The notes: generated by a model from the sequence alone, not told the origin. 54,644 nucleotides of DNA, filler included, from Sphacelaria rigidula (GCA_964200075.2; 2 parts of 2 records of this genome joined end to end with filler, not necessarily neighbours in it), one strand, 5' to 3'; counted from the whole stretch's first letter, positions 15,890 to 54,644 are shown. Translations and numbers: made by a program.

Positions 15890-16145
15890 GAGTGATGCTA
15901 CGGTAGGGGTGCACAAATATTTTCCAAGATTGGAATTTTTAGAAGCCCCATATTCTATCCAAAATACGACTTATGAAATGTGTGAGATTACGCCAGGATT
16001 ACTTTCCCAGTGTGCCAGGGATACCCCGAATGAATTTGCAAACGGGGATGCCCTGACCCATACTTTTGTGCATCTGGAATCGTTGGGAGCCCCTAAACAA
16101 GACCAGATTTTGCGCAAAAAGTATACCCATACCGTGGCATTGCTC
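15890..16145. mobile_element. MITE with ~25-bp TIRs beginning GAG, degenerate 4-bp TSD (ccat/tcat); Sola2-like
   Basis: Left end gagtgatgctacggtaggggtgcac, right end gtatacccataccgtggcattgctc. A second copy lies inverted at 46434-46690. Confidence 0.8.
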
Positions 16146-19300: not shown

Positions 19301-20409
19301 GGAAATATTCGACCGAAGGAAAGCTCATCACGCTCAGCTGATCAATAGCTACGGCTAGACTTACAACTTTATATGTTCGTTCACAGGGGAAGTGAGGCTC
19401 TCACTTTCATGTGTTGTGTTGGGTTGTGCGTCAAACGTTTGCATGTGCTCCTCCGATCGCTACGTTCATGTCGCAGATCATCGGTTTGCGCAAACCGAGT
19501 TCAAAGACTCCTGAACGATTATCAAAAATCTGTCCGCGCGAGCAGATTTTGTGGCAGTCCTCTCGGGAGGTGGTATCGCACCGATCGATCACGGGACCCA
19601 TAACAAAACAGATTTTGAGAAAATTGATTACTCTGCCTCGGCAGAACAGGTCCTAAACTCTCGAATGTCCGTGCCTATGAATCACGGGATACCTGCAGCA
19701 TCCCGTGGGTTAACTTTGGAACCGTCGCGAGCTTCCTCAACCAATCGAGACATGACACACTTGATCTCCCAACCTCAAATCTCAATCCTCAAAACTGCGA
19801 GGCACAAGGTATTATCTATCTCCGCTGTATCGTACTGTGGACGACGTGCGGAGCAATGACGGCACTGTGCTGTACTGTAGAGCATGACAGGCGTTCCTGT
19901 TGAGCCAATTCGACGCACCTGTACCCGTAGTAGTCGGGAGTGATGTACTCATACATAGCCTTCCGAGTTCGCCGCGGATTCTCCACATCCGACTTGTGGA
20001 ATAGCTCACGCACGCCTGGCAAATCTTTCGCTGCACCAAAATATTTGTACCCACCGCCCCCAGGTAACTCCCGTCCATCTGCATCGTACGATTTTGGAGC
20101 ATTTGCAGCATAATCTGGTCCACCTAACTCCAGTATTCGCTTGTCCCAGTGCGTCCGCTCTCGCAAAAGCTTATTGATTTGGTCATTCAGATCGCGAATT
20201 TTGTGCTCCCCGGCTCCGGCATTTTGGATCTCATGCACCCGTTTGCTGGTCTCGCGTATGATATCCCTCCGCCACATCTCCGCGTCTGTCAGATTTTCGC
20301 ACTCTGATGCCAGAAACGGCCGGCGCCCTCTCTCCGGCTTGGCCATCTGCTCCTTCATGGTGGTCCACTTGTTCATCATCATCTGCGCTTTTTCTTCATT
20401 ACGCGCCAT
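16304..20409 (-). CDS. ISY1: Pre-mRNA splicing factor ISY1; exons 20409-19919, 18323-18164, ~16465-16304
   Basis: MARNEEKAQMMMNKW...RRPFLASECENL...IRDLNDQINKLLRER.HW...GYKYFGAAKDLPGVRELF...PDYYGYR|DEEDGIL...HVPVPSQEKIKEAIL. Splice phases 2 and 0 are consistent with GT-AG. Confidence 0.95.
17988..18011. repeat. Interstitial telomere-like (CCCTAA)4 in an ISY1 intron
   Basis: Four CCCTAA units. Degenerate versions occur at ~3334-3348 and ~4803-4826. Confidence 0.7.
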
Positions 20410-20782
20410 GGCTGTCTAAATAGCGGGATAGATCCCCTAGTGAGCGGCAACTATTAAGGATGGGATAAGGCTGCTCACTCTATCCTCCGAGCCGGTCTTG
20501 TTAGATCGACCAATCTATCCCCACCGGAGTGGCGTCTGCGGTAGACACTTGAGGATTTACAAGGACAGGTGAACAAACACGGGATGCCGTTTTTCAAATC
20601 TAAGCTTCCGGTGGGCTAGGTATCATCCCACGACTGTAATAACGTACTGCTCCGTTCCAAATGTAAGCAGAGGAGTGCCTGAAATTCACCAGGGAACGCT
20701 GCTTACTGCTGGCGCTTGTCGGGTTGCGTCGGTTACCTCTGTTGCTCTCTGTTTCTGCGTAAAAGTTGCACACAGATATCAT

Positions 20783-21194
20783 TCAGTTATTTTCTAAAGT
20801 TTTATCAGTATCAACCATCATCCAGAGGATGCGGCGGAATTCTGCCAGCCTCAATCAGCGGTTTGAACTTTCAGTACAGGACAGAGCAGTGCCATGCAAG
20901 TGTACATATACGCGCGTTCGAATTATCGAAAGACGATGGTGGCATGTGCAGCTTTGGCAGTACTGCGTGACTTCCTCACTCGATTCCGTCAGTCATTTTC
21001 GAAAATTGTATCAGTATCAACCATCATCCAGAAAGTGCGGCGGAATTCTGCCAGCCTCAATCAGCGGTTTGAACTGTCAGTACAGGACAGGGCACAGTGC
21101 CGTGCAAGTGTATATGTACACGCGTTCGAATTATCGAAAGACAATGATGACATGTGCAGCTTTGGCAGTACTGCATGACTTCCTCACTCGATTT
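20783..21194. repeat. Tandem duplication, 2 x ~205 bp, between ISY1 and LRRIQ3 start codons
   Basis: Units ~20783-20984 and ~20990-21194 share long identical runs, e.g. tatcagtatcaaccatcatccaga and gcggcggaattctgccagcctcaatcagcggtttgaact. Confidence 0.95.
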
Positions 21195-21347
21195 TTCTCG
21201 TAATATTACACAATACACCACTTATCGCAGAGGGCTCGCCATAACTTGTCATGACTTCCCTCCCCCACAGGACTGTGATTTGAACCCTGGTTCATTTCAC
21301 CACTCTCGACCTATCCCGTACCCCGTAATCGGCGTAAATAGCAAAAG

Positions 21348-22711
21348 ATGGCCCAGCACGCGGTGGTGCCGCGTGTATGGATTCTGCCAAAGGAACATGG
21401 AAGTCAGGGGAATAAACTCGCGACTTTCCCCGCCTGGCGACCGAAACAGCAGCAGAGCCCGGTGTGGCGATTGGCAGATGAGGAAAACCTTGACCTCAGC
21501 TGCTTCGAAGGACGTGTGCTGGACGTATCCTACAGTTCCTTGCCGGATCTTCGTGGTGTCGCCGCAGCGCCTTCGTTCGAGTGGTTGACGGTTCTGTCAT
21601 TAAAGGAGATGGGGCTAGAAAATATTGAGTTGTTGAGACATTGTACGATGCTGGTCTACCTGGATTTATCTTCGAACGAGATTTCCGACCAAATCGATGA
21701 GATGTTTTGGACGTTTTGCCCGGATCTGTTGGTTCTGCTTCTGCACGGGAACAAGGTGAGAGGCTTGGCAGTGGTGACCCCAATCATCAGCCAACCGTAC
21801 ACATGGGCAAGCGGTGCAAAGACCTTTTGAGTGAGTATCCAACTTGACAATGACCTTGCAGTACGTAAAGCGACAAGGCAATGTTGTCGCACTCAATTGA
21901 GGCTTTTTGCTCTCTTTTCGTTGGGACGTTCGCCAGCATTTGAGTACAATCGGCCTATTAATAGTCGGTAGGAAGGGCGTAACGTTTTATGTTCTGCGCG
22001 CACCATCTACTTCAAGACGATACCACTCATTTCAATATATATATATATATTTATATATATTGCTGCTATTTTGACCCGCGCTTGGTGATCCCGCAGATTA
22101 AGGATTGGCGCACGACGATTAGCATTGGCCGTGTGCCCCGACTAACGTATCTGACACTGTTCTACAATCCTGTCAGCACGATGAAGATGTACCGCACCTT
22201 CACAGCAAACTACTGCGAGTCGTTGCGCGCCCTCGATCGTCACGTTGTTTCTGACGAGGAGGTGATTGAGGGTGCAGAATTCCCCCCGTGCAGTCGGTAT
22301 CAAACATGCTCGGCGACACTTGCCCTGCCTTCAGCGCTGTTCGGAGCGCTTACGGAGATACCGCTTGCGTCACGTCCGATCAGACACTGGGGGGGCAACG
22401 CCGGGCTTCGTCGATCGGGGGCGTATCTTGATCCTGAAGAGAAAAATCATCCTAGTTCGCGCCATCCGTTCGGAGATGATGAAGTGTTGGCGAGTGTCAC
22501 GCGGCGCGTTGAAGTGCTGCAAAAGTTTCATTCGGGGCAGAGTCCTGTGATTCTCCTACAGCGGCAGATTCGACGATTTCTGTTGGAAAAGGTAATCGCG
22601 AACGCTGTGGTAAAGATACAGGCGTGTGTGCGGATGTGGATTGTCACTCGAAGGGCAATGAAGCAACTCACGGAGCTTCTGCGTACGACTGGGGAACTTT
22701 ACCTCATTCAG
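21348..22711 (+). CDS. LRRIQ3: LRR and IQ domain protein (LRRIQ3-like), 5' exons 21348-21755 and 22097-22711; 3' part not found before the contig join
   Basis: LRRs (LVYLDLSSNEI, FWTFCPDLLVLLLHGN), LRR cap (LTLFYNPVSTMKMYR...LRALDRHVVSDEEVI), then SPVILLQRQIRRFL and the IQ motif KIQACVRMW. Joins are phase-0 GT-AG. Confidence 0.82.
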
Positions 22712-23094
22712 GTGCGCGTTGTGGAAAAGTTGCTGACTGCTCTCAGGCGTGCTGACTGCGTGATACAATGAGTGCTGATGTCTCACGGTGCAAGTATAAG
22801 CTATCGAGTTGACCAATATCTTCAGCAATGGATGGATGTCACAATTCGACTCACCGGTTTTGCCTCTCATGATACCCGTCGATGATCAACTAAACTGATG
22901 AATAGCTCCAACATTCGCAAGTTTATTGGTATACTCGTTTCAGTATACACGAAGCTCACATTTTCACAGCCTCGGATTACAGAGTAAGGTGCAGACGGTG
23001 AACTTCAACGGGTCCGGATCCGCCATACTCCAAAACCAGAACGCGGGTATTTGGAAATCCCACACCTCGGATAACGATAACTATTATTCAGTCG

Positions 23095-27287: not shown

Positions 27288-27387
27288 NNNNNNNNNNNNN
27301 NNNNNNNNNNNNNNNNNNNNNNNNNNNNNNNTTAATTAATTAANNNNNNNNNNNNNNNNNNNNNNNNNNNNNNNNNNNNNNNNNNNN
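27288..27387. other. Artificial scaffold spacer N44-TTAATTAATTAA-N44
   Basis: Exactly 100 nt and symmetric. The central 12-mer gives stops in all six frames. Confidence 0.98.
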
Positions 27388-30300
27388 GGAAGTAGTTGGT
27401 CGGAAGTAGCCGTTACGTATGGTGCAGATGGAATGTACATGCAGGGGTATGTGGTTGAGAGACTCTGGATGAGCCTGCGGAGCCCCGTATCTGGAAGGAT
27501 TGGGGCACTCCTCTTTCTTCCCTCTCTCCGCTCTTCTCCTCTGCTTCCCTTGCGGGTCTAATACAAAGGATTAACCTATCTCCCCCTTCCAAGTAACGGA
27601 CATACGAACACACTAGTGCGATCCCTCGAGGGAGTCCATTAGGAAATGGCGGGCCGCGCGGACGGGGGCGATGTCCCCGGCGGACTTCTCGGCGGGAGAT
27701 GAGAGCCAAGCTTCTGTTCCGCCGAGCAGCCACCTAGAGCTGCATCCCGCGGTGGTCGTCAGGGAGGGCGACACTGGTGGAGGAGAGAGCAGCAGTAGGC
27801 CGGGCGTGCAAGGCGTCCTGGTGCGGGCTGTGGAGGTCCCTGCTGAAGGTGGGTCTAGTGTATTCTGGAACACCGACTCTCTCCGTAGAAGAAGTTATGG
27901 CGATGTGTGTACAGCAGCGTCGCTGCCGCTGGGGGCACAAGCGAAAGTGTCACAGCAACCGACTATCCATACGGGAGAGGTCGGGCAAAGTCAAGTGGCG
28001 CCAAGAAGGGTGCTGCTGACAGTGGGGGCGCTAAGGAGAGCATGTCCACACAGAGAAGTCACTTTTATCATCGCGCATCACGGGTGGCGTTGCCCGTGAT
28101 CTGCTAGCTGATTTGCAGAGGGGGAGCAACAACAACGATACGGCAGGTCCGCCGTAGGCCCTCAGCTTCGCTGGATTGCGAGGGGGGGGCGGAGGCAGCG
28201 CGCAGGTTAGGCGCGAGCTCCACATGAAAGGCGTTCGAGTAATCGGCGCAACAGAACGGACGGAGGGTCCGTGAAGTCGCGCAGTTTTGGCGCGCACTCC
28301 ATTTGCGTAAATGGGCGGTGGAGACAGGCCGGTAGAGTGACCGTGCACACCTGGGACGCAAGGACACTCAACCCTGTTTGGCACGCGCGACGGCGCGTGG
28401 GGGGGAGTGGGCGCCGAATCACGCGTTGAGCGGGCGGCGTTTCTTCAATATAGTCAGCCCAGCACGGACGTACGGACCGTGGCTGTTTTGCCTCGTCGTC
28501 GGAACGGGGGGGGCAGCATGATAAGTCGCGCGGAAGTGCGCGCAAACCCAGCACGGACGGAGGGGCCGTGGCTGTTCTGCCTCGTCATCGGAGCGGGGAG
28601 AGTGGCATATGAAGTCGCGCGGAGATGGCGCGCAACCCGTCAGCCGGAAATGGGCGATGGGACAAGAGAGGGGCACAGCGGATTAGCGGTGTCATCACAT
28701 GATGTCGTGCGGAGGTGGCGCGCAACCCATCAGCCGGAGATTGGGCATTGGGACGGGCACAGCAGATAGTCATCTACGAAGTCGCGCGGGGAGGTGCCGC
28801 GCGCATTTCATCAGCCGGAGGAGGCGAAGAAGGATAAGCTGCGCGGCGCGGCCGCGGGCACTGCTGGATTCTGGTTGGAACTGGGATTTGTTTTGTTTCT
28901 TTTTGTGTACGGAGCCGATGCAACAGTAGCGTTTGTCTTTCACGGAACAGTCGCAGTAAAGGCGCTTTCTAGGAGTTTGAAGGAATCGCTTGTACGGTTG
29001 CCGCGTGTGTGGGAGTACGTGGATGACGTATAGGCCCGTCGTCCGTATACCTGAGTTTCATGAAGTCACCGATATACGTTTTCTCCCGCGTGGATGGAAC
29101 GTTGCAGAATAGGGGAGGGTGACGACGTGCGTGCGCGTCTTGTTTTGGAGAGTTCTATGCTTGGAAAGTTTGCGCCCGATCTGTGGATATTCTGCAACTC
29201 GACGGATTTGTGTTGTGCACAGATTTGTTTTTGTGTCTGAGGTGAAAGCATTTCGGTCTAGCAGGTATTTGGTGGCGGCGGGCGTTGATGAGCTCTGTAG
29301 GCGTTGTTGCACTCTTGTGAACATATTTGGTCGTGTTGCCACGTACGGATGCATGCCAAGTCAACGAATACTGGATGGTTGCTGTGTGTACGTCAATTGA
29401 AGATCACTAGGATAGCGCCTGCCCGGGGTGGGTAGAAAGCGCGCGTCGAATGACACACTAAGAGAGGGTGTATTGAGCCGTTCCCAACTACTAGGCGTGA
29501 TGCGCAAGGGAAGGCTTGAGGCTCAGATCATCAGTGTTTGGTTGATTGGCAGGCAGTGATAGATGCTTGTGGTGGTTGCTGTGACCAGGTTCGTAGAGTA
29601 CGACCTCACCGCGAGGGTGAGGGTGGAATCGACTTGTTTCGAACATGTTTGCGATATCGCGCGGGAAGGAGCCATTGACATTGATCGACGCATTTTTGTT
29701 TGCAGAAGAGTTCTGTCCATCCTTAGTTGAAGGAGAATTCGCGATGTGTTGAGTTTGAAGATCGTGGAGCCTTGTTGAGACTAGACGATTCGCGAGTGCA
29801 TCTGGACCAGTTAAGCTTGAACCAGTTTTGTTTCTGGTTGTCTTGATTTCTCGGAGGAATATTATCACAGTTGATCCCAAAACGGGGAGAACGTACTTGT
29901 CTGGTGAAGTTTTGATGCGGAATGCAATTAGGCAGGGAGGGCGTTGCCTGTAGACGTGTGGGACCTGGTCTGTATTGCACGTGCTGCACAAGGATTGAGT
30001 TCGTTTCATCGTTGCAGTGAGGATTTCTGGCATAAGCGGTGATACTCGGGATTGTAGAGTATTGCTTTGGGCGCATTATCCTTAGTTCTCATTGGTACTG
30101 CAGTACGGCCGTCGGAATCATCGATGATATGAACGGCTTATTAAATTTCGTTTGAGGCGTTGATGTCGACGGGTTTTGATCCGGTGGCCGGGTTTCCCCT
30201 TGAATTTTTGGTTTTCGTTGCGGTTAGATATTTCCAGATGTATTTCCGACGCACGAAAGGTTCTCCACTGGCGTAAAGAACCAGGGAGGGTGTTCGTGCG

Positions 30301-30524
30301 TGGAAGTAGTTGGTCGGAAGTAGCCGTTACGTATGGTGCAGATGGAATGTACATGCAGGGGTATGTGGTTGAGAGACTCTGGATGAGCCTGCGGAGCCCC
30401 GTATCTGGAAGGTTTGGGGCACTCCTCTTTCTTCCCTCTCTCCGCTCTTCTCCTCTGCTTCCCTTGCGGGTCTAATACAAAGGATTAACCTATCTCCCCC
30501 TTCCAAGTAACGGACATACGAACA
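27388..30524 (+). mobile_element. Non-autonomous LTR retroelement; 5' LTR 27388-27610 (start lost in gap), 3' LTR 30291-30524
   Basis: Near-identical direct repeats. The complete LTR has inverted ends TGTTCGT...ACGAACA and is preceded by the purine tract agggaggg (30283-30290). The 2.7-kb interior has no intact gag/pol. Confidence 0.88.
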
Positions 30525-30759
30525 CAATCTACACCTCATATCTTTACGCTGAAGCCTCGGGAGCATATGTGACAATGGTTTTCTCAAAGCCCTATAGAAG
30601 CACGACGAAACGCACCCCACAACATCGCTCTTGCAGACACGTGAACTGGATCGTATCGCAGACGTGCGAACTCGCACTCTTCTTCCTGATTTACAAAAAA
30701 ATAGTAACGGGGAACAAGGTTGCACACCTCCCCTCGGCTGCTTTCACGCACCGCACGCC

Positions 30760-31520
30760 TTTGCCTACGCTGGCATACGAGATGGTCCATCCACATAACA
30801 CCCAGCTCCCGGTACCGTGCGATCAATCAGAAAAATCACTCACCACGCACGCCCCAGCGGCAGTCTGGCTCCCTCCCGCGTGCGTTGTGTTGCAGACAAA
30901 TAGCCCTCCTCTCCGGAAAATAGCTTCGAGTTCAAAATAATCTCCCGGAGCTGCAACTCCGCACCACTTCGTCGCAGCGGTCTCAGTGCAAACGACGGTG
31001 AAGATGTGGCCCTGCGTGGCGTTTTCTCAGCAGGTGCTTGCGGCGGGGGCTCCGTACGTTGTTTCAGTATCCACATATGGGGCGAAACACGGAGCAGTTG
31101 AGTCCGTACGCGCGATGTAGAGCGAGCTCGATGGAGGGATGGATGGAGGGAGCGTGCGGGGGGATGTGGGATGGTGCTGCGGATGTGGGTTGGATTGTGC
31201 TGGGTCTGGAAACCAAGAAGAAGGTGAAATTGTTTCGTGACACATACTCGTTTCCTTTTACTCTGCGACGGCGCGATTGGCGGCAGCACAGAAATCCCCT
31301 GCGGCCGGTGTGCTCTATGAGCGTGAGGTTTTTGGGCGTGCTCTCAATACAGGAGCACTGCGGCAGCTATTACAATAGCAAAACACAGCAATTTTCTTTG
31401 CAGCTTTGGCCATCCCACCGACATGGTGCGGAGGTTTCAGCAAAGCGAGGTTCGGCGATGCCACTGATGCTAATCGAAGAACCCCTGTGGGCAGAGCTTA
31501 AAACGACTTTAACATGGGCA
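30760..31520 (-). repeat. Diverged copy of the promoter/5'UTR region of the NLR-like gene (paralogous to ~44900-45815)
   Basis: Shared blocks such as ctcccggtaccgtgcgatcaatc.gaaa..atcactcacc, gattggcggcagcacaga and ggcagagcttaaa. Confidence 0.8.
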
Positions 31521-31747
31521 ACTCGCCCTCTCGGTGGTTGCTCGGTGCGTGCAAAATGACCTGAGCATTGGGAAATCGCCCTCTTGGTGGCAACACCAGC
31601 GATGGGTGCGACCGGATGCAGTTGATACAGTAGTTTCAAAGCAGACCAAAGCCCCCGTTACTGAGTTTTCTAGGCCAGCCCAAGCGCGCCAAGGTTGCTA
31701 CGGTGGCGGCTACGGTGGCGGTACTCTCTATTGTGAAAAGTGGCACC

Positions 31748-32368
31748 CTACTCCCCCGTGTGCCGCCCGTTGCTTTTCATCAAATTGCGTTTGTCCAGCA
31801 TGCCCCTCGGCCACGCCTCCGTGAATTCAATTTCAATTTCAACATTAAAGTCATCCTGCATCTTCCCACCAGCCCGGTGGGTCTCGTACCAGACGCCAAA
31901 CTTGGAAAATATATCCTCTCTTGAAACACCAACAAATCTCTGGGATGACGCCACACGGGACGTGTCTGCCCCGCATATATCGCCCAACAGTATCGTCTGT
32001 GGGCTAACGTGGTCGTAAATGAGACCATCGGAGTCTTCGAGCCACGTGTGGAAGCTCTCGCTCCCCTCCGTCCACGGCTTTCCCGCGAGGATAAACCCTC
32101 CGTAAACAATGTGGATGTCACGCCCTTTGGTGTCCGCGAACCATAGACACCGACCTTGGCCCGCAGTTCCAGGCCAAGAGTTCTTCTGTAAAACTTTGCG
32201 TTCTCCAAAACGTTGTGCGGGCACCTCCCCGGTATGTCCGTGTAACCGGTGGACTGTCAACGGACTCTTTAACCGTGGGCGGCATTTTGTCACAGCAACA
32301 AGTGGTGCTCGTGAGCGGACAGCTACACCCGTGAATCGAGTAGCCACCGAGCGATTTGCTGCGCACAT
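31748..32368 (-). pseudogene. Frameshifted paralogue of the C-terminal part of 32950-33810 (HTWLED..DG..YDH motif)
   Basis: DNA 31770-32255 duplicates 32880-33352. The homologous peptide is split across ORF frames 31748-32368 and 31780-32208. Confidence 0.75.
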
Positions 32369-32819
32369 ACATAGACCCGACGCATCCCTTGGGGGTTGCC
32401 GGGGGGACGCACAAGGCCTTCAGCGCAGAAACGGTGCGAGACCCTTCTCCTCTCGCTTCATAGCTTTGGTCTTGCCACTCTTGGTTTTCTTTTTGTTGGC
32501 AGGCACGGTATGTTTACTCCAAAGAACCAAGAATTTGTACTTGACACAATTTGGCCGATCGGCAGCGCCGGTACCGCCAGTACGAGCAGTGGGTACAGTT
32601 CCAGTTGGATGCGTTTACTTCAATTGTGTCCAAAAGGCGCCTCCCCGTGGCGAAGATTCCTGATTTCTTCCGTGAGCGCAAGCGAGGCCAAGTGTAGGCG
32701 CATTCCCTTCCCGTATGCGATTAATACAGTAGTTTCAAACCAGGCCAAACCCCCTTGAAGCGCAGTGGCACAAGACGAAGCGCGCTAAAGGTTGCTTAGG
32801 TGGCGGTACGTCTCTGTTG

Positions 32820-33810
32820 TGAAAAGTGGCACCCTGATACTACGTGCCGCCGCTGGTGTTTTTGGATTAGACGAGGTTGATTATCAAATTGCGTTTGTCC
32901 AGCATGCCCCACGGCCACGCCTCCGTGAATCCCATTCCAATTTCAGCATTCAATTCGTCCTGAATTTTATGACCTGCCGGGTGGGTCTCGTACCAGACGC
33001 CAAATATATATATCCTCTCCTGAAACTCCAACAAATCTCTGGGATGACGCAACACGGGACGTGTCTGCCCCCGCATGTATCGCCCAACAGTATCGTGTGA
33101 GGGCTGACGTGATCATATATGCGACCATCGGAGTCTTCGAGCCACGTGTGGAAGTTCTCGTTGCCGTGCGTCCACGGTTTCCCCGCGAGGATCAATCCGC
33201 CGTAAACAATGTGGACGTCACGACCATTGGTGTCGGTGAAACCAGAAACACCGACCTTGGCATGTAGTTCCAGGCCAAGAATTCTTCTGTAAAACTTTGC
33301 GTCTCCAAAACGCTGTGTGGGCACCTCCCCGGTATATCCGTGTAACCGGTGGAGTGTTTCAGCGGGAATGGTTTTGGGGATCATTGTCTCGAAGCTGTAC
33401 TGACCGTGGCACGAGCTGTAGCCCTCCCTGATGTTGACCGGTATCGTCGACCGGACGAGAGGCATGAGCTCACTTGGTATTCCGGTGCCCACGTAACGCA
33501 CGTTGACCTCGAGACCCTTTGTGCAGTCTGGATGTGCCGGGATTCCCCAGGGCTCTCGAATGCCTCCCTTGTAACTCTTTCTGCAGACGATGCACTTGCG
33601 TTCGACGATAGCCTTCAGGTGTCCGATGCCGAGTTTGCACAGGGTTTTTCTCTGGTACGTAGTCATTTTCGGTTTGACGCTCGCGATAGCGGCCGGGATG
33701 TTGGCGTAGACGACACCTTTTGAGCGTCGGGACGCTCTCGCAAACGAAGCCATGCACTTGGCATCCGGTGGGAAGGCAGTCACGAGGTCGATGTTCACGT
33801 CGGCAAGCAT
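32820..33810 (-). pseudogene. Chimeric ORF: F-box-like N-terminus, CxxC...HxxC Zn motif, then transglutaminase/papain-like HTWLE-DG-YD segment; frameshifted at the 3' end
   Basis: 286-aa ORF. Similarity to the neighbouring copy starts abruptly at HRLHG.TGEVP, and the tail continues in frame 32867-33076. Confidence 0.55.
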
Positions 33811-34004
33811 GTTGATGCCTGAGAACGTAAAGTGATCTTGTTTCTGTCCGGTGTCGGATCATTGTTTCCGGCTTAAAGTGACGAGAGCTGCCGGCATATT
33901 GCGGTGGCAAAATTGCGGGCACCATGTATCATACCGGAACCACACCTGTCCCCTCCGCTACAAAAAAGTTGCGCGCGAATCGACCTGCATGTCGCCGGGC
34001 GTGA

Positions 34005-34694
34005 TCAACCAAAAAAATCAAATAGTTTCACCATCGACGCCAAAGTTTTGCTGGATGAGCGTTTTGACGCTGTCGAGAACATGAACTTTAGCATCTGTGT
34101 CAATCTCGACACCGATTTCCTCGCACATTTGATAGCAGTAAACTTTCTCTCGTCCATCCTTTTTCTCTTGAGAGACATGCCCTTTTCTTGCAGCTCATAG
34201 TCGTTCCTACGAAGGTCCTGGTACCCCTTCTGAAGCTCCTGGTCCCTGGATTTCATGGAGAACTCAACTACTTGTCTCGCGAACGCCTCACGATATTCCT
34301 CACTCAGATGCCTAAATCCCGCGGGCATGTCAGCACATTGAGCGCCGGCTCGAAAGCATTTTTCACGCATCGCAATATGACGTTTTTCTGTCTCGATGAC
34401 AAGCTTGGGATCACCCTTGAGCAGCTTACACACGGTGTGTGACATCTTGCGACGTACGTCGTCTGGAATCTCCGCCGGCAGTAACCACACGAGCTCAATA
34501 AGCATGTCGACCCCTGCGACGGCCGTTAAACCTCCGCTGTCATTGATCCGGCGCTGCTCCTCATCTGGAAGCGCTCCAATCTTGATACAGGCGGTCTCTG
34601 CTTCGTCTGTATCACACGCGAGCACCATCTTCGCCACGTCCACGCCTGATCCCTTACGCGATGTCCGATCGACGCGGATCGTCGTTGCATCCAT
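34005..34694 (-). CDS. Bro-N/KilA-like giant-virus-type DNA-binding protein with coiled coil (3' end probably frameshifted)
   Basis: TIRVD...GS..DV.KMVL.CD; INDSGGLTAVA..DMLIELVWLLP...RRK.SH.VC.LL.GD; MPAGF..L. Intronless. Confidence 0.75.
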   Translation of the reverse strand: MDATTIRVDRTSRKGSGVDVAKMVLACDTDEAETACIKIGALPDEEQRRINDSGGLTAVAGVDMLIELVWLLPAEIPDDVRRKMSHTVCKLLKGDPKLVIETEKRHIAMREKCFRAGAQCADMPAGFRHLSEEYREAFARQVVEFSMKSRDQELQKGYQDLRRNDYELQEKGMSLKRKRMDERKFTAIKCARKSVSRLTQMLKFMFSTASKRSSSKTLASMVKLFDFFG

Positions 34695-35049
34695 TGTGCT
34701 TGATTAATCATAGGCTATGTTATATTTTCGGGCTTTTGAACGCAGTGCTCGCTGGTTGTGTGCGACGTGCGAGCGTTTTTCAGCTCGTAAGTTTGGCCTT
34801 AACACTGATGTGTGCATTTACTTGGTGGCAGATAAAGGGTCTGTGTGGTCAGTTGACGAAGCTTCGCCGGCGGGACACACACGATCCGGATGGCTTATTA
34901 AATCAGATCCGCATCTATCGAGTGCCCGGGATGTCGTGAGGTATTTCCGTATTAACAATTGAGAGTGCCAAAAAAGAATGACTGGCCAGTGTCTGCAGAG
35001 AATCCATCTTACTAATCTGACTCAAAGGCAACAGCACACACTACTGATC

Positions 35050-35589
35050 TTACCCAACAACAGTCGGCGACGAACCCTCTTTCTTCTCCGCAACAAAAAG
35101 CTGCGCGCGAATCGCCCTGCAACCGTATGTAGCCGGGGGAAGCGGCTCGATATCTACGGTGTCCTCCTCAAGTGTGACCCACGCCTCGTCGATCCTCTCC
35201 TGTGTGTGCTTCCCCCATCCTGTGTACTTGTGCTTGATGCGGTTGCACATGTACTTAACATCCTTTGCCGCCCGCTTGGCCTTGGCGTACTCGACCTCGA
35301 CAGGGAATGGGAGTTGACACGCTCTGAGATCACAAAATGCTTCGTCGTGGGCCTGCCGAATTTTGTACCCTGTCGTGATCAACCAAATGTGTTCCTTCGG
35401 TTTGAAGTAGGGCCTGAAATCCACCAGGTTCCTGTTCATGGAAGCAGCAAAGTCAGACGCTTGGTAGAAGTCGTCTCCGATTATGCCGTCGGACGTGAGG
35501 TCATTCAGCAGCCTGAGAGCATCTTTCGTCTTCGCCAGCATTTCCTGCGAAACACCGTGTGTGCTGCATCCGATGAGCCAAGCCAACAT
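35050..35589 (-). CDS. Hypothetical intronless protein (179 aa), duplicated at 53921-54436
   Basis: The open frame is conserved between two diverged copies, with an AT-rich upstream region. No motif recognised. Confidence 0.7.
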   Translation of the reverse strand: MLAWLIGCSTHGVSQEMLAKTKDALRLLNDLTSDGIIGDDFYQASDFAASMNRNLVDFRPYFKPKEHIWLITTGYKIRQAHDEAFCDLRACQLPFPVEVEYAKAKRAAKDVKYMCNRIKHKYTGWGKHTQERIDEAWVTLEEDTVDIEPLPPATYGCRAIRAQLFVAEKKEGSSPTVVG

Positions 35590-35660
35590 CTTTGTCGCAG
35601 TTTGTGGTTAGGGTGCACGGTGTTTTAGCTGCGAAAGTTTGGTGCAAATAATAATTTAGG

Positions 35661-36347
35661 TTACACCACCTCGCTAATGTCTGGTTTGGTGATTTGGGCT
35701 ATCGTGTCAACGATGTGAACTTGAGCGCGCGAATCGAGCGTGATATCAAGCTCCTCTAAGGATCGGTACATATAGATAACGGTGTCACAGCGTTTGCGTT
35801 TTAGCGAGATCTTCCGTTCTTCAAGTTCGAGGGCCTTCCGCCGGAGGTCTTGATCCCCGCCCTTGAGGAACTGTTGCACCATTTCCTTTGCGAGCTCTTG
35901 TTGATCTTGGACCCCTAAAAGCTCAAAGCCGGCCGGCATGTTGTCCTTCTCGCCCCCCTGAGCGTGGGCGCGTAGGCTCGCCTCTCGCATAGCGATATGA
36001 CGCGCCTCAGTATCGGTCACCAGGCTTGCATCCCCGTCGCACAAACTGCACACCGCGTGGCACACCTTCCGGCGAACGTCGTCCGGGATTGCGCCCGGTA
36101 GCAACCAGATGATTTCGATAAGAAAATCAACGTTCGCGACTTGCGTATACCCTCCCCTGTTGTTGATTTGAAGTCTCGGACGGTCTTCGTCCGCGTCAGC
36201 GGTTGGCCCGAGAAGCTTGTTCAGCGCAGCTTTGGCTTGGTCTTCGCCACAGTCCAATACCATCTTTTCAACATCTACCAGCGATGCCCTGTTGGAGGCA
36301 TGGTCGACGCGAATAGTGGCATTGTCGAGGCCCGTTGCGGTGGCCAT
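35661..36347 (-). CDS. Bro-N/KilA-like giant-virus-type protein with coiled coil (228 aa, intact)
   Basis: ATIRVDHASNRASLVDV...LQINNRGGYTQVANVDFLIEIIWLLPG...RRKVCHAVCSLCDGD...MPAGFELL. Paralogue of 34005 and 48108. Confidence 0.8.
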   Translation of the reverse strand: MATATGLDNATIRVDHASNRASLVDVEKMVLDCGEDQAKAALNKLLGPTADADEDRPRLQINNRGGYTQVANVDFLIEIIWLLPGAIPDDVRRKVCHAVCSLCDGDASLVTDTEARHIAMREASLRAHAQGGEKDNMPAGFELLGVQDQQELAKEMVQQFLKGGDQDLRRKALELEERKISLKRKRCDTVIYMYRSLEELDITLDSRAQVHIVDTIAQITKPDISEVV

Positions 36348-36554
36348 GATGTTATGTGGGCTCAGTAAACATAATATTTGTTGGTGAATGAACGAGACGG
36401 AGCGCTCACACCGTCGGAACGCAGACGATAGGAATCGCTTGCTGAATCAGTCCAGCATCAGCAAGTTAGGGGCGTCCAACGACAATAGCCTCGAAAAATA
36501 ATCGAATCACATTGTGATACTGTGTAGGCAACATTAATTTTCCGCTGGGTGCCG

Positions 36555-38152
36555 CTACAGCTTAATGCCCAAAACCCTGTAGCAGTAGATGATGGTATCA
36601 CATCGCCGAAGCTTCGTCGAATCTTCGCCCACCGGCACCGCCACGCACATGGCCGAACCACCGACAGCCGTAGTAAAACGCCACTGGACACCACTGATCC
36701 TTTCCGCGAACTCGTCTTTGTCGAGGTCGCAGAAACGCCCCACCGACGCCAATTGCTCTTTATAGTATTTCACGATGTCGATCTCTCCCATCGCTGTACT
36801 CGTTTTGATCTTCATCGAAGCATAGGCCCTCTTCTCTTCAACCGATGCGTGTTCGAACCAGAATGGCTCGTCATGCTGCTTAGATTGGTAAACGACCTTT
36901 CTCCGTTTCCTCGGCAACGTGCTTGCGCATCCCACTCGTTGTCAATATGAGCCCTGTTATCACCAACAACGGTGCTGGCATCATCGTCGTCCAGATCATG
37001 CGCTGGTTCTTCCACGCCAACCTCTTCGAACGTAACCTTCACCGCGTGCGCATAACACACTGACTTCGCCATCTCGAAGTACTTGTCGGTATCTTTATCT
37101 CCGATGTATGCAAAGAGGTGCAGACGCCTGGCCAGATGAGGGTAGTGTGATTGGTACGCGAGCACCTGCCCGAGCCCATGCTTCCATCGATTGTGGTACT
37201 TCACCTCGATCACGGCATCGCTGGGAATATCAATGAAACCCAAGGGTGTTTCCACCTCACGTTCTCCTCCGATGAGAAAAGCAAGAGCATCTCTCACGGA
37301 ACTTTCCTTCACCCTAGTTGACTCCCCGTCTTCCTTGTACTCCACCGGCTGAAGCAGAGCTTGTCGAATGGCTTCTCCTCCTTCGACAGACCCCCACACC
37401 AGGTTGTTCTGCTCGATCTGGCGACAAAGACGGAGATCACGCCTCATTGCACGGAACACTGTCTCCACAGATTCACGACGGAGCGCTATCGAGGCACCAC
37501 TTAGCAACATCCAAAAAACTTCCACCAGGGTGTTAAAGTCAGCAACCGGTGTAGTGTGCCCACAGCCGTTGATTTTGATGTTCTTGATACGGGATTCAAT
37601 CGATGTCACACGATCATCCTTTTCAAGGACGCGAGTAAACATTTGTGCAGCACATTCACCAGAGGCCTCGGGACACAATAGCTGAATTACATCAATAATG
37701 CTAGCTTCGCCCGTAAGTTCGTCCATCTTGACAGCGCCGTTGATGTTGATGGACCGTGGAGCTTTCTGCAGGACAGAAGCTTTCGTTTCAACCAGCTCGA
37801 CTGCATGCTTTCTTCCACCTGCTGTTCCCTCGGCTGGGGTTGCTGCGTTTGGCCAGAGGGGTGAACATTTTCCATACGCTCGGGCAGGGCCTCTTTGAAC
37901 GCCTGGCCAGACTCTTCGCGCCACTTGGGACCGCTCATTTTTTAAAGGATGTCGTGGCACAACCCGAGCGTGGCAAAAGACATCTGTCTGCCATTTATGA
38001 GACGCGTGGACTTCTTTAGGCCATCGTAGCCCTCGAGGGTTCGGTGGACTGCTTTCAGAATGCTCGAGTTGTGTAGGTTCGGCATGATGTATTTGACCAC
38101 GCTTTGCACCTAAATGTCCCCCATGGGAGCGTCGATCGTGATCCTTGTTCAT
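36555..38152 (-). pseudogene. Bro-N-like domain(s) + PD-(D/E)XK nuclease + helical C-terminus; frameshifted
   Basis: KINGCGHTTPVADFNTLVEVFWML, then GGEREVETPLGFIDI..DAVIEVKYHNRWKHGLGQVLAY. The tail continues in frame 36555-36935. A degenerate N-terminal Bro-like unit with stops lies in another frame. Confidence 0.8.
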
Positions 38153-38382
38153 GATATTTATTTTGTATAATTCGCAAGGCACATTTCTATTTTGTGCTGT
38201 TGAACGCGGCGCGTGTTGGTTGTGAGCATCGCGTGCACGTTTTCCAAATCTCAAGTTAAGCGTAGACACTAGCCACCCGGCGGCGATGCGGTGGTCTTGA
38301 GAAAAAGTGGAGGAATGGTTACAGTTTACATCGCAACGTCAACCCAGCCCGCCACTGCCGTCCGACCACACAACAATGCCTA

Positions 38383-38694
38383 TCAACCGTCAGCACGAGG
38401 GAACGCGCGACGTCGAATCTCTGTGATGATATCAGCAAGCCCAACCCTTTCCCTCGTATCGTACAATCCAACTTTTTCGTACGCCTCCTTTAACGTCATG
38501 ACGATGTCCAATTCGGCCATGACGCGTTGTTTAGCGAGTTCGAGATCGTTTTTCCTCGCGAGCATTGCCAACTCGTGTTGCACCACCATATTCAAGTACG
38601 CGTCGCAGTCGCTGTCGGTGGCGTGATCGAAGATAGGAGGACCAATGCGAGCCCTCTTCGCCTGGCGCTGTCGGGTGAACGATCGGGTGTTCAT
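38383..38694 (-). CDS. Small protein resembling the C-terminal helical module of the Bro-like family
   Basis: PPIFDHATDSD..AY...MAELDIV..LKEAYEKVG parallels PFWFEHASVEEKRAY...MGEIDIVKYYKEQLASVG in 36555-36935. Confidence 0.55.
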   Translation of the reverse strand: MNTRSFTRQRQAKRARIGPPIFDHATDSDCDAYLNMVVQHELAMLARKNDLELAKQRVMAELDIVMTLKEAYEKVGLYDTRERVGLADIITEIRRRAFPRADG

Positions 38695-51080: not shown

Positions 51081-53115
51081 TCACCGGCGTCTCGATCGCT
51101 TCCTTGCTCTTTTCGGCGGCTGTGGTCGCACTGCCTCCTCAGGAGGGTCAGCATATTCGATGGTCACCCCGGCGCCTACCGCGATGTGTGCACGCGCTAC
51201 GATAGAGCATACATACCACCATCCATACTCCACACCGCCCGCCCTCTCGTACCACCATGGCTTCATTCGTTCTCCGCCCCCTCCAATAACTAATTTAGTA
51301 TTCGGCGTGAACGAGTGGTTGAGTAGTCGCAGCAAGCCGATTTCCATGAACTCTCGACAAGCGGGGACCGTACCGCGCATGGTTTTGCTCGGGTCGATCA
51401 CGAGCGCTCCTAGACCATCCGTGTGCATGATGTGACCCACGCACGTATAGCCACCACCTTTCGTGGCATACCCCGCAGGTACGTCTACATCCGGGAGAAA
51501 TACCGTCAAGAGAGTATCGCCTTCGGCAAAAGCGACCTTGGTGCCGAGACCCTTGCCATGGATTAGGCTGTCGATGTCCTTGAGCGCGTCGTGCGAAAAG
51601 AGATCTTTTTCCATCACGTCGTGTACCTGATTGATTTGCGAGAGAAATCAGCGGCAATTGTTTGGATGACGCGCACGGTATGAGGCCACTACGTTTTTGT
51701 AACAACCTGTGAAGCACCGACTATATGCGCCGCTCACCGTTATAGCGGACCGCTGTTCCGGCTGCTGCTGTCGTGTGCTGCGCCGAAGATGGTCACGCGA
51801 GGGTGGGCTGGCCTTCTTCAGTTGGTCTCGTAGATCCTCTCTTTCTGCACGTACTCTCGCCAATCGCCGCTCTAACTTTTGTGTTGCTGCCTTGATTTCC
51901 GCCTGGTCCAGAAGGGTAGCCGCGGGAATTGGCAGAATTTCAAACAGAACGAAGATCCGTAGCAACAGCGCCCTACAATAACCACTGCTGTACATGCATA
52001 CGAAGCGGGAACATGAGGATTTTATCGTTTGTTGCGGTGCTCTGTTTACCACGTGTCCGTTTTGGCGACATCAACTTTTGTTGCGAGATTGTTGGTTTTC
52101 CAATCCTCCTACCTCGTGTCCATCGCGACACCCGTTCTCGCTCCCGCGCCCACCAACTGTCTTTCCGGGATTTGGCTCCGGAGATGTGTCAGCACCCTGT
52201 CTTGTCCCCAGCTCGCATCCCTGAACGCCTGCTGCTTCCGCTACAGATGCGAGAAGACCTATCCTTGTGACACCTTGCTCCGCTCCGATCGCTGGCTCAA
52301 CATCACTCGCCACCGCCGATCCTTCACCAGGCGATGTACTGGACTCCGTCGCGGTCACCCCCGCTGCAACGAATGCTGCTGCTGCGACGTCTACTGCTGT
52401 TGAGGTCCTCGTGGCTGAGGGACGACTGGTCGCTCTGCTGCACGTCTAGATGGACCAGTCATTCCGTTTTTTTTGTGCTGGCCACAGCGAGTCCGAGCGA
52501 GGCCAGGAAAGTCATAACTGGCTGTCTTACCACACCCTTCGCACTTTTTGAGCAAACTGGTCATCCCCTCTGCGGCGTGTGCAGCACAGCGCCTCTTGTT
52601 ACCATCCGCCTCGAAGCCATACGAAGGGTAATGGTTGCAACCCACGTGGCTACACTTTTGGGAATCTATGAGGTGAAACACCCCCTCCTTGGCCTCATTC
52701 TGACACTGCTTGCATTTTCCGTCGATTCTCTCGGGTGTGTCTACGATGAAAGCGCCAGTTTCATCTACAAGGGGACACATGAAAGGCGCAAAAGGGCAAG
52801 CAGCGAGGAGAAATTGAAGACTTTATATGTTTCGTGCTTCTGCTGCGTGGAAACAAAAATGCGAGACACGTACGCGTCGCCGTGTACAAATACCGCTGAC
52901 TTCCACCTAGAGTTCAAGAGCGTCAATAGCATAACGCCTTGGAGCTTGACGTTTCGAGGGCTCCATCTACAGGTTTGTCCCAGATGCGGCCCAACCGCCC
53001 AACAGCACACATAGCAGCAGCGTTCGCTCGGTCGGAGCTCGGCTGTAGGCAACCGTTTTTCACCTTGCCTTGCAAACACCCCTCTCCCGCGTCCGCAACT
53101 ACATCTTCGTGGCAT
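51081..53115 (-). pseudogene. 4-exon gene: EsV-1-7 Cys/His repeats, linker, coiled coil, SET domain, basic tail. Exons 53115-53064, 52764-52050, 51902-51738, 51626-51081
   Basis: CSHVGCNHYPSYG....RRCAAHAAEGM and CEGCGKTASY....TRCGQHKKNGM; SET motifs SLIHGKGL, LLNHSFTPN and IAVGAGVTIEY. Three phase-compatible GT-AG introns. Exon 2 has one frameshift and one TGA (52071-52073). Confidence 0.75.
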
Positions 53116-53182
53116 GTTGTGAGCTGACCTCGAGTCGGCTGTGCTCAAGTTCCTCTCTCTTTGCCGGTGCTGCTGCTGTCTA

Positions 53183-53277
53183 CTATTGGCCCGGGGGCAC
53201 ACTTTTTGTGCTATTGGCCCATGTGCGGGGGGTGTACTATTGGCCCTGGGGCACCGTGATAAGTGCACTATTGGCCC
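53183..53277 (-). promoter_or_regulatory. Four GGGCCAATAG (CCAAT-box-like) repeats upstream of the SET-gene ATG
   Basis: ctattggccc at 53183, 53211, 53237 and 53268, i.e. 68-162 nt upstream of ATG 53115. Confidence 0.4.
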
Positions 53278-53339
53278 GCGTTTTTTCGGACGGAAGATTG
53301 CGCACAAGAGCAGAGGAAACACACACAACGCCGCCGTGC

Positions 53340-53495
53340 CTCTGCTGCTGCTCTGCTGCTCTGCTGCTACTCTGCTGGTGTGCTGGTGTGCTGCTGCCGC
53401 TGCTGCTGCTGCTGCCGCCGCTGCCGCTGCTGCTGCTGCTGCTGCTGAGCGCTGCCGCGTTACAGGTGAGCTCAATGTTCCACGAGAGAGAGCTT
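53340..53495. repeat. (GCT)n microsatellite-associated repeat, related to 45640-45692
   Basis: (gct)n followed by caggt.agctc.at....cacgagagagag at both loci. Confidence 0.7.
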
Positions 53496-53920
53496 TGATG
53501 TGCGTGATGTTTGAACGCAAGGAGTAAAAAGGGTGTTGTCTACAGCGCCGTTTCGTCGCCGGGGAGGAAAGGAGAAGCTGAACCACAATACCGTTTGCTC
53601 TGCGGCGCAAGTGGCCAGGACCGGTAAGGCACGAGCCGAGCTTTCATCGCTGCTGCAGCCGTTGTGCTGTACGAGCGTCAAGGTTTTGAGTGTGCTTGAT
53701 TTTAAAAACTGCTACAAGCAACAAAAGACAGCCGGTACACACTGCTGCAACAAGCCGCTGCAACAAGCTGCTAGAGTTCAAACTCGGCATCAAGAATACC
53801 ATGGTCCACCAGCTGCGCACTTCTGCCACATTCCCCTCGGTAGAAACTCAATAGAAGACCTAATTTCTCCCCACAGAATGTACTCTGACCCGAAAGCAAT
53901 GGCAAACACTACTGATACTA

Positions 53921-54436
53921 TCAATTAACAGTAGCCGGCGATGAAAGTTGAGCGCGAATTGCCCTGCAACTGCATGTAGCCGGGGGGAGCGGCTCGATGT
54001 CTATGGTGTCCGCCTCGAGCGTGGCCCATGCCTCATCGACCCGCTCTTTGGTGTGCTTCCCCCACCCTGTATACTTGTGCTTGATGCCATTGCACGTGTA
54101 TTTTACATCCTTTACCGCCCGCTTGGCCTTGCCGTAGTCGACCCCGACCGGTAGTAGAAGCTGACATGCTCTGGGGTCGCATGAAGCTTCTTCATGGGCC
54201 TGCCGAATTTTGTACCCTGTCGTGATCAACCAAATGTGTTCCTTCGCCTGGAAGAAGGGCCTGAAATCCACCAGGTTCCTGTTCATGGAGGCAGCGGAGT
54301 CCGGCGCTTGGTAGTAGTCGTCGCCGACATGGCCGTCGGACGTGAGATCATTCAGCAGCGCCAGAGCATCTTTTGTCTTCGCCAGCATTTCCTTCGAAAC
54401 ACCGTGTGTGCTGCATCCGATAAGCCAGGCCAGCAT
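53921..54436 (-). CDS. Paralogue of hypothetical protein 35050-35589 (171 aa)
   Basis: MLAWLIGCSTHGVS.EMLAKTKDAL... The duplication 53952-54556 vs 35104-35708 also includes the 3' tip of the upstream Bro-like gene. Confidence 0.7.
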   Translation of the reverse strand: MLAWLIGCSTHGVSKEMLAKTKDALALLNDLTSDGHVGDDYYQAPDSAASMNRNLVDFRPFFQAKEHIWLITTGYKIRQAHEEASCDPRACQLLLPVGVDYGKAKRAVKDVKYTCNGIKHKYTGWGKHTKERVDEAWATLEADTIDIEPLPPATCSCRAIRAQLSSPATVN

Positions 54437-54644
54437 CTTCGTCGCAGTTTGTGGTTGGAGGGAGTGGTGTTTCAGCTCCGAAAGTTTGGTGCAAATATTA
54501 ATTTGGGTTCCACCACCTCGCTAATGTCTGGTTTAGTGATTTGGGCTATCGTGTCGAGTAATCCTACGATAGGGCGGGGGGTATTTGGTTGCACGAAAAA
54601 TAGGGCTCATAAGTGTGTCAGACATTCCTCCACACTTGCGTTGC

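Follow-up and report, generated by a model that had tools for sequence, protein, structure and literature searches.

We examined a 54,644-nucleotide stretch of DNA from the brown alga Sphacelaria rigidula (GCA_964200075.2), hereafter the window, whose right part is one assembly contig of 27,257 bp (27388-54644) carrying an amplified gene family with members, among them EsV-1-211 and FirrV-1-A34, in phaeoviruses. With a probability of about 0.6, we read this contig as brown-alga nuclear DNA containing an old, rearranged and decaying phaeovirus-derived region that lost or never held core genes. The original prediction, made from the DNA alone, had described a 24-kb mosaic island in this part of the window and offered two readings of it, the accessory flank of a degraded phaeovirus-like provirus or the cargo of an undescribed large mobile element. 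The evidence presented here favors the former, as family members occur in EsV-1, FirrV-1 and FsV, and three of the window copies fall in a clade made up of viral and window genes.

Family copies and their decay

Searches with tblastn and a profile located six full copies of an N-terminal domain of about 115 residues (N-domain) in five genes or pseudogenes, plus two fragments (Table 1), in agreement with the five or more paralogues and fragments originally proposed. Identity among the N-domains of the window ranges from 23 to 47%, with 13 positions invariant in eight sequences, viral members included. Copy 3 aligns by tblastn with residues 4-518 of a 520-residue relative (P0002) across three frames, and has accumulated two in-frame stops, both in its first part, and two frame changes; its nuclease part is 88% identical to an Ectocarpus protein named FirrV-1-A34. 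The break in copy 7 at 50370 is not an assembly error, because the window sequence over 49968-53341 recurs without any difference in a contig assembled independently from run X1. With the two frame changes in the NB-ARC gene described below, these lesions bear out the decay that had been noticed at the outset.

The ratio of nonsynonymous to synonymous substitution (dN/dS) was 0.25 between the two N-domains of copy 7, 0.28 between copies 3 and 7, and 0.20 for a duplicated pair of orphan open reading frames (ORFs) in the same contig; for copies 1 and 2 it was not computable, the synonymous sites being saturated. Judged from these comparisons, the duplicate pairs appear to have remained functional genes through most of the time since they diverged, with the breaks coming late.

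Kinship with phaeoviral genes

We found 69 sequence relatives of the family, almost all from brown-alga assemblies and not from virions. One of them (P0050), named EsV-1-211, is 100% identical to a 335,593-bp IMG/VR contig, on which two adjacent family paralogues and an opposite-strand fragment adjoin a 786-residue ORF; 786 residues is also the length given for the EsV-1-213 integrase in an earlier report (PMC2373305). Of the four viral loci that matched the N-domain profile, two belong to EsV-1, and the others lie on a 154,641-bp contig and on a viral contig from a metagenome. Adjacent family paralogues are present in viral locus L004 as well as in EsV-1. Copy 6 is the window member nearest to the viral genes, with 70-75% amino acid identity to an EsV-1 gene (L003 9992-10837) and 58-67% to L004. 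At the EsV-1 locus (L003 9875-10843), the likeness to copy 6 begins at 9992, upstream of the first ATG (10166) of a 225-residue ORF; the EsV-1 gene may have lost part of its N-terminus, or its limits may be misdrawn.

A BFVD search with the AlphaFold model of copy 3 (predicted local distance difference test, pLDDT, 64 overall and >90 in the N-domain) gave 15 viral matches at E<=1e-3. FirrV-1-A34 (E 7e-16, 241 columns) and EsV-1-211 ranked highest, and FirrV-1-B3, four FsV proteins (B5LWG4, B5LWM3, B5LWF9 and B5LWG5) and KilA-N proteins of mimivirids and HaV-01 were also among them. When the N-domain alone was modeled (pLDDT 73), all seven significant matches were phaeovirus proteins. The family is thus truly phaeoviral, with real members in EsV-1, FirrV-1 and FsV; the ORFs first called Bro-like do have homologues in nucleocytoplasmic large DNA viruses. 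EsV-1-210/211, the EsV-1 gene at L003 10166-10843, FirrV-1-A34 and B3, and the FsV proteins all possess the same N-domain and are clustered in their genomes, and FirrV-1-A34 has the same layout of N-domain and nuclease-like domain as window copies over the 241 aligned columns, whereas several of the window copies are broken. In the literature searched, we found no mention of "EsV-1-211".

A tree of 60 N-domains was built, leaving out 13 of 73 domain hits that covered <70 profile positions, as well as locus L002, which overlaps L001. The six window domains require at least three origins in this tree. Copies 1, 2 and 6 form an exclusive clade with three viral genes (support 100/98), within which copy 6 groups with the EsV-1 and L004 genes (99/92), while copies 3 and 7 each stand beside different algal-assembly proteins. 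The cluster therefore did not arise by local duplication alone, and holds lineages that coexist in viral genomes.

Identity of the domains

The label "Bro-like" did not hold. Neither Bro-N nor KilA-N was matched by Pfam on window ORFs at E<=0.01, nor on the intact relatives EsV-1-211 (P0050) and P0002 at E<=5, and BRO-N proteins appeared in the structure searches only at E 0.03-0.13. The family resembles the Bro-N proteins of baculoviruses and phages as a viral accessory multigene family with a predicted N-terminal DNA-binding domain and variable C-termini, but differs in having no Pfam Bro-N (PF02498) match. Against 48,161 solved chains, the N-domain model was closest to the Mbp1 APSES domain (1bm8; Z 6.6, root-mean-square deviation 3.1, 87 of 99 residues), followed by a second Mbp1 entry (1mb1, Z 6.3) and the N-domain of granulovirus Orf22 (Z 6.2); these scores lie below the tool's noise level of 7-8, and only four of the chains reach Z>=5. 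On the strength of these models, "APSES/KilA-N-like" is our best lead for the N-domain, not a result. APSES and KilA-N domains are said to be related, a proposal attributed to Iyer, Koonin and Aravind in 2002. KilA-N/APSES nuclease fusions are known from giant viruses, and a similar arrangement is seen in one relative only (P0067), where a true KilA-N domain (E 2.4e-19) takes the place of the window's N-domain before the same C-domain (44% identity). KilA-N proteins of megavirus, moumouvirus, mimivirus and HaV-01 also match the whole copy 3 model (E 2.5e-7 to 3e-4); the difference is that no window copy, nor EsV-1-211, has a KilA-N match in Pfam.

The nuclease fusions of the original prediction correspond to a D..ExK nuclease-like C-domain in copies 3 and 7. 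Its residues D164, E172 and K174 are invariant in 23 sequences and match the D ... E-x-K catalytic motif of PD-(D/E)xK nucleases. Nucleases with PD-(D/E)xK folds were recovered at Z 5.2-6.5 amid unrelated proteins, from a part of the model with pLDDT 50-75 (CdiA-CT 6.5, ERCC1 central domain 6.0, NucS 5.8, BglII 5.7, and also the Avs4 nuclease). The whole copy 3 model had no match at E<=1e-3 in a Foldseek search of the PDB, and its best score in the VIA search was Z 6.7, with no clear fold. The motif fits a PD-(D/E)xK nuclease, for which a restriction-endonuclease-like fold is a candidate.

Absence of core genes and boundaries of the block

Pfam scans of 286 stop-to-stop ORFs of >=50 residues, a length below which short exons could escape, gave no capsid, polymerase, packaging ATPase (A32 type included), helicase-primase, integrase or transposase family, as the original prediction had it. 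Matches were limited to three of the 123 ORFs of >=90 residues (TPR, NB-ARC and EsV-1-7) and one of chance level among 150 ORFs of 50-89 residues, with none among the last 13. Neither a tyrosine recombinase nor a DDE gene was found, and there was no window match to the 786-residue ORF next to EsV-1-211. We saw no element termini or terminal repeats in the block; the inverted repeats it has are all pairs of paralogous genes facing opposite ways, and both of its ends are assembly ends, not element ends. The region is probably not an autonomous element.

Runs of N occupy 4111-4120, 27288-27331 and 27344-27387. Because the contig starts at 27388, just behind the last of them, the position 30760 proposed as the left edge of the island has no special meaning, and the unit, which holds the whole island, starts at 27388. 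The record for a SET-like protein of the window gives its contig a length of 27,257 bp, precisely 54644-27388+1. This contig borders a scaffold gap on the left, and on the right it ends within the start of a high-copy repeat.

The two halves of the window differ as predicted. The right contig contains 85 ORFs of >=110 residues (14,149 residues in all) and the left half 48 (6,748 residues), giving the right contig about twice the long-ORF content; five of the 48 ORFs on the left have a Pfam match, and the genes there are ordinary host genes (Table 1). The window DNA is eukaryotic, and nearly all relatives of its proteins are from Ectocarpus, Pylaiella, Sphacelaria and Laminaria, which by itself points to a brown alga near Ectocarpus. 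GC content is close to 0.49 in the first 28 kb and rises to 0.51-0.58 beyond.

Copy number and a second species

In the likely source sample, read depth was 24-31 over 47-53 kb versus 35-99 over 34.6-39.3 kb. Read contigs of another species (organism B) include one of 4,575 nt in which the equivalent of 53528-53894 is followed directly by that of 35028-39345; it differs from the window by about 7% and lacks 37873-37957. Organism B also covers 48.1-48.8 kb and 51.6-53.3 kb with about 5-6% difference. Because of this joint and of the 87% duplicate 35097-35708/53944-54555, we place a second copy of the 35-39 kb block beyond the right end of the window, as the evidence suggests, and the extra depth is explained by that second copy. 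The arrangement would predate the split of the two species, or stem from closely similar insertions. The 85-nt stretch 37873-37957, which lies in copy 3, is missing from a further contig of the source sample as well as from that of organism B, and thus marks an indel difference between two copies of the block.

A second sample with the same species label (X3) had a depth of 2-6, with identical pieces over 34.6-45.4 kb and near-zero depth over most of 47.3-54 kb; this coverage is too low, and too confounded by copy number, for any polymorphism to be claimed. Coverage by run X10, whose RNA origin is a guess, falls chiefly on repeats and is shallow at 40.6-41.3, 42.0-42.6, 44.0-44.6 and 50.0-51.3 kb; it is usable neither for nor against expression.

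Origin of the region

The reading of the contig as a phaeovirus-derived relic would imply that several already diverged lineages of the family arrived with viral DNA, by one or several insertions. Host processes would then have reshaped the region through segmental duplication, gene fusion, insertion of a miniature inverted-repeat transposable element (MITE), frameshifts and stops, so that it now lies among host-type genes (NB-ARC-TPR and EsV-1-7). Copies 6, 1 and 2, the SET-like ORF and the orphan pair are still open, probably under purifying selection, and may be expressed or co-opted.

Several observations weigh against this reading. Almost all relatives of the family come from algal assemblies, which would be compatible with transfer in either direction, and "host" rows of the tree may themselves be proviral; the tree relatives were chosen by likeness to copy 3, which biases the sampling. 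Apart from the family itself, no collinearity with EsV-1, L004 or L005 was seen within +-10 kb, the phaeoviral DNA compared directly amounting to about 75 kb (loci L001-L005). An IMG/VR scan for the nuclease-bearing type gave none among 250 candidate stretches, and one for the SET family none among 47. The GC content of 0.51-0.58 is host-like and proves nothing, the connection to the left flank passes through an assembly gap, and purifying selection on the duplicates is equally compatible with a working host family. No nucleocytovirus (NCV) marker gene is present, which sets the contig apart from partial proviruses as defined in the Phaeoexplorer report (10.1101/2024.02.19.579948).

The leading alternative is that the family belongs to the brown algae themselves, turning over by tandem birth and death in the manner of NLR and EsV-1-7 arrays, and that phaeoviruses took members from it. 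Such a history would accommodate the near-exclusive occurrence of the 69 relatives in brown-alga assemblies, the dN/dS range of 0.20-0.28, the conservation of parts of the block in organism B, the local tandem duplications and the neighboring host-type expanded families. We still regard it as unlikely: the copies in the window do not share a single origin, three of them cluster with viral genes alone, copy 6 retains its 70-75% identity to an EsV-1 gene, and the family consists of single-ORF genes beside intron-bearing host genes. Algal assemblies are also full of viral insertions, according to the Phaeoexplorer report, so that "algal" matches are no proof of a host origin (10.1101/2024.02.19.579948).

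Two further explanations invoke mobility. If the family consisted of selfish, homing-endonuclease-like genes copying themselves within viral and host DNA, the island would be a landing zone of their own spread, in keeping with the predicted DNA-binding plus D..ExK domain architecture, the paralogue clusters in EsV-1, L004 and the window, the presence of several lineages in one place, and a depth of 2-4x baseline over 35-39 kb. We think this quite improbable, as only two of the five full copies here have the nuclease domain, both of them broken; the nuclease fold is a tentative one (best Z 6.7), the extra depth reflects one larger duplicated block that includes unrelated ORFs, and no target-site pattern was seen. 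As for the cargo of an undescribed large mobile element shuffling viral and host defense genes, the second option of the original prediction, viral-type and host-type genes are indeed mixed in one block, part of which is multi-copy, and just 0.15 of the sampled words recur in the other sample bearing the same species label. That sample nevertheless contains identical pieces at its low depth (2-6). The block has no recombinase, DDE or other transposase, no match to the 786-residue EsV-1 ORF and no terminal repeats; its inverted repeats are paralogues, its extra depth is a second copy of one part, and its ends are those of the assembly, all of which makes this option very hard to credit.

Other features of the contig

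The NLR named in the original prediction is present as an NB-ARC-TPR gene. In accordance with the motif order of NB-ARC domains, its P-loop (44052-44026), kinase-2 (43740-43717) and TTR (43674-43657) motifs follow one another in a single frame, while those that come after them lie in different frames, at 43619 and 43244, at distances of 37 nt and 0-3 nt. Neither of these two junctions (43657/43619 and 43248/43244) has room for an intron, since the frames there overlap or adjoin, so the gene is frameshifted there and not spliced. The prediction of spliced immune and chromatin genes is not supported on this point, nor for the SET gene, which is a single ORF.

The assignment of the SET gene itself stands in part. 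The window ORF scores 13.8 bits with Pfam SET, below the cut-off of 22.4. Only four relatives exist among 5.8 billion clusters, three of which carry PF00856, and the motifs NHSF[TA]PN and VTI[EK]Y are conserved in all five SET-like sequences; SET domains are defined by an NHSxxPN motif and a C-terminal tyrosine motif. Among 30 Atlas matches, 27 are SET clusters, the named top ones labeled viral and mostly Nucleocytoviricota, and 14 of 15 weak PDB profile matches are SET enzymes. One relative has an N-terminal extension that a stop cuts off in the window. Small viral SET methyltransferases of the chlorovirus vSET type are similar to this short, single-domain ORF, from which they are set apart by the window signature NHSFTPN, by a SET assignment that is predicted only, with Pfam below cut-off, and by the absence of IMG/VR members.

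The EsV-1-7 repeat ORF belongs to a family that is hugely expanded in the brown-alga host itself, as stated in the Phaeoexplorer report (10.1101/2024.02.19.579948). The tandem ORFs at 31.8-33.9 kb, the P0089-like one and the chimera, derive from families known in brown algae that lack Pfam domains. In the chimeric ORF, residues 4-170 of P0071 match 33852-33364 (80%) and residues 88-239 of P0089 match 33339-32897; none of its 23 relatives has a Pfam domain, and the junction points to a gene fusion through rearrangement. The orphan ORFs share 78% amino acid identity by tblastn, and 82% over the 156 codons used for dN/dS. They have 16 distant HMMER relatives with no consistent Pfam family (nine were scanned, and three of these had Pfam matches, all to unrelated families and taken as chance or repeat) and no usable Atlas match.

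Self-comparison by blastn gave five duplicated pairs (Table 1), in line with the several segmental duplications reported originally. We read the repeat at 46434-46690 as a MITE; its depth of 264,335 in run X1 against a baseline of 24-31, together with many joints and loose ends, indicates very many copies in the genome, and one further copy lies in the host-gene half at 15890-16145 (82%).

Side observations in the right contig include a 225-bp direct repeat (27388-27612 and 30302-30526, 99.6% identical), whose first copy begins with the very first base of the contig, right after the N gap, and which could be either a genuine repeat at which the assembly broke or an artefact of assembly. The segment 28001-30000 has a GC content of 0.556, a strong GC skew (+0.24), no ORF with a Pfam match and a tandem-like internal repeat (28458-28820, 71% identity). 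A GC-rich simple repeat at 53389-53509 encodes poly-Ala in several frames and yields spurious matches to an EsV-1 run (L001 3088-3213). In the left half, between the Isy1 and LRR-IQ genes, there is a tandem duplicate of about 205 bp (20783-20985 and 20989-21193, 91% identity). No Rfam family was matched in the window, and a PHROGs search of 16 window ORFs gave no matches.

Table 1. Positions of genes, gene fragments, duplications and repeats in the window
Feature	Position	Strand	Remarks
Longin-synaptobrevin (VAMP-type) gene	10238-12641	+	Longin and Synaptobrevin exons ~1.5 kb apart (intron)
Isy1 splicing-factor gene	19819-20415	-	E 2e-73
LRR-IQ gene	21342-22768	+	Pfam
ORF like 244-residue Ectocarpus protein P0089	31793-32506	-	tblastn, P0089 residues 1-239, 49% identity
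Chimeric ORF	32897-33858	-	N-half of ~380-residue brown-alga family (P0071, P0076) plus P0089-like part
Family copy 1	34008-34703	-	Open ORF; EsV-1-211-like N-domain and coiled tail
Orphan ORF copy A	35053-35607	-	Duplicate of copy B
Family copy 2	35664-36446	-	Open ORF
Family copy 3	36612-38142	-	Pseudogene of FirrV-1-A34 type; two N-terminal domains, D..ExK nuclease-like domain, C-tail
Family fragment	38404-38685	-	Like C-region of EsV-1-211; P0050 residues 280-367, 33% identity
NB-ARC-TPR (NLR-like) gene, frameshifted	42035-44232	-	TPR_12 E 1.6e-31; NB-ARC 24.3 bits (cut-off 23.5)
MITE-like repeat, ~257 bp	46434-46690		Complementary ends (terminal inverted repeats); very high copy
Family fragment	47642-47888	+	Part of N-domain; E 3e-5
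Family copy 6	48111-49178	-	Open ORF; member nearest to viral genes
Family copy 7	49327-50513	+	Two tandem N-domains and nuclease-like domain; frame change at 50370, truncated
Family N-domains	34362-34679, 35979-36314, 37343-37786, 48768-49112	-	
Family N-domains	49372-49698, 49783-50124	+	
Single-ORF SET-like gene, small	51084-51617	-	NHSFTPN and VTIEYADPP motifs
EsV-1-7 cysteine-rich repeat ORF	52394-52822	-	PF19114, E 1e-15, 57.7 bits (cut-off 25), two stretches
Orphan ORF copy B	53924-54520	-	Duplicate of copy A
Start of another high-copy repeat copy	54556-54644		Contig end; joints 46690->54556, depth 105,468; only partial alignment
Segmental duplication	30733-31292 and 44873-45473		69%, self blastn; 30733-31292 without recognizable gene, weak tblastn links
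Segmental duplication	31612-32257 and 32711-33357		80%, self blastn
Segmental duplication	35097-35708 and 53944-54555		87%, self blastn
Segmental duplication, inverted	37022-37605 and 50492-49907		70%, self blastn
Segmental duplication	49357-49693 and 49768-50104		84%, self blastn

Comparison with known viral relics and significance

Comparable relics have been described in other brown algae. The Phaeoexplorer study counts 792 viral regions across 72 genomes of these algae; 81.3% have a length of 2-50 kb, and most are single-exon and silent (10.1101/2024.02.19.579948). In Porterinema, small core-poor fragments of endogenous viral elements (EVEs) with introns, host-like GC content, TPR genes and some expression have been discussed as endogenization (PMC11890097), and Ectocarpus cosmids analyzed in 2008 had viral pieces among repeats, pseudogenes, transposase relics and TPR genes (PMC2373305). 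With the Phaeoexplorer regions, the Porterinema EVEs 40-2 and 94, and the pieces of Delaroque and Boland 2008, the contig shares a size of 2-50 kb, single-ORF genes of phaeovirus type, the lack of a full core-gene set, pseudogenes, repeats, a transposon insertion, TPR genes nearby and host-like GC content. It differs in having no NCV marker at all and in a viral signal that consists of one amplified accessory family and a SET-like ORF. The block is one more case of a known kind of relic, unusual only in its single amplified accessory family and its lack of any marker gene, and the contig may already be in the published viral-region list (Table S19).

A more speculative extension, to which we give little probability, is that the EsV-1-211/FirrV-1-A34 family represents an unrecognized selfish class of DNA-binding plus nuclease proteins moving between phaeovirus and brown-alga chromosomes, and that the open copies, the SET-like gene and the NLR-type gene were kept by the host as a virus-derived defense or silencing cluster.

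For brown algae, the region is a further example of giant-virus DNA broken up and absorbed in the host genome, and its value lies mainly in annotation. A multigene phaeovirus family that has no Pfam model gains a working description, with a predicted APSES/KilA-N-like DNA-binding domain joined in some members to a D..ExK nuclease-like domain, and the host copies that appear to be under purifying selection become candidates for co-opted or selfish genes.

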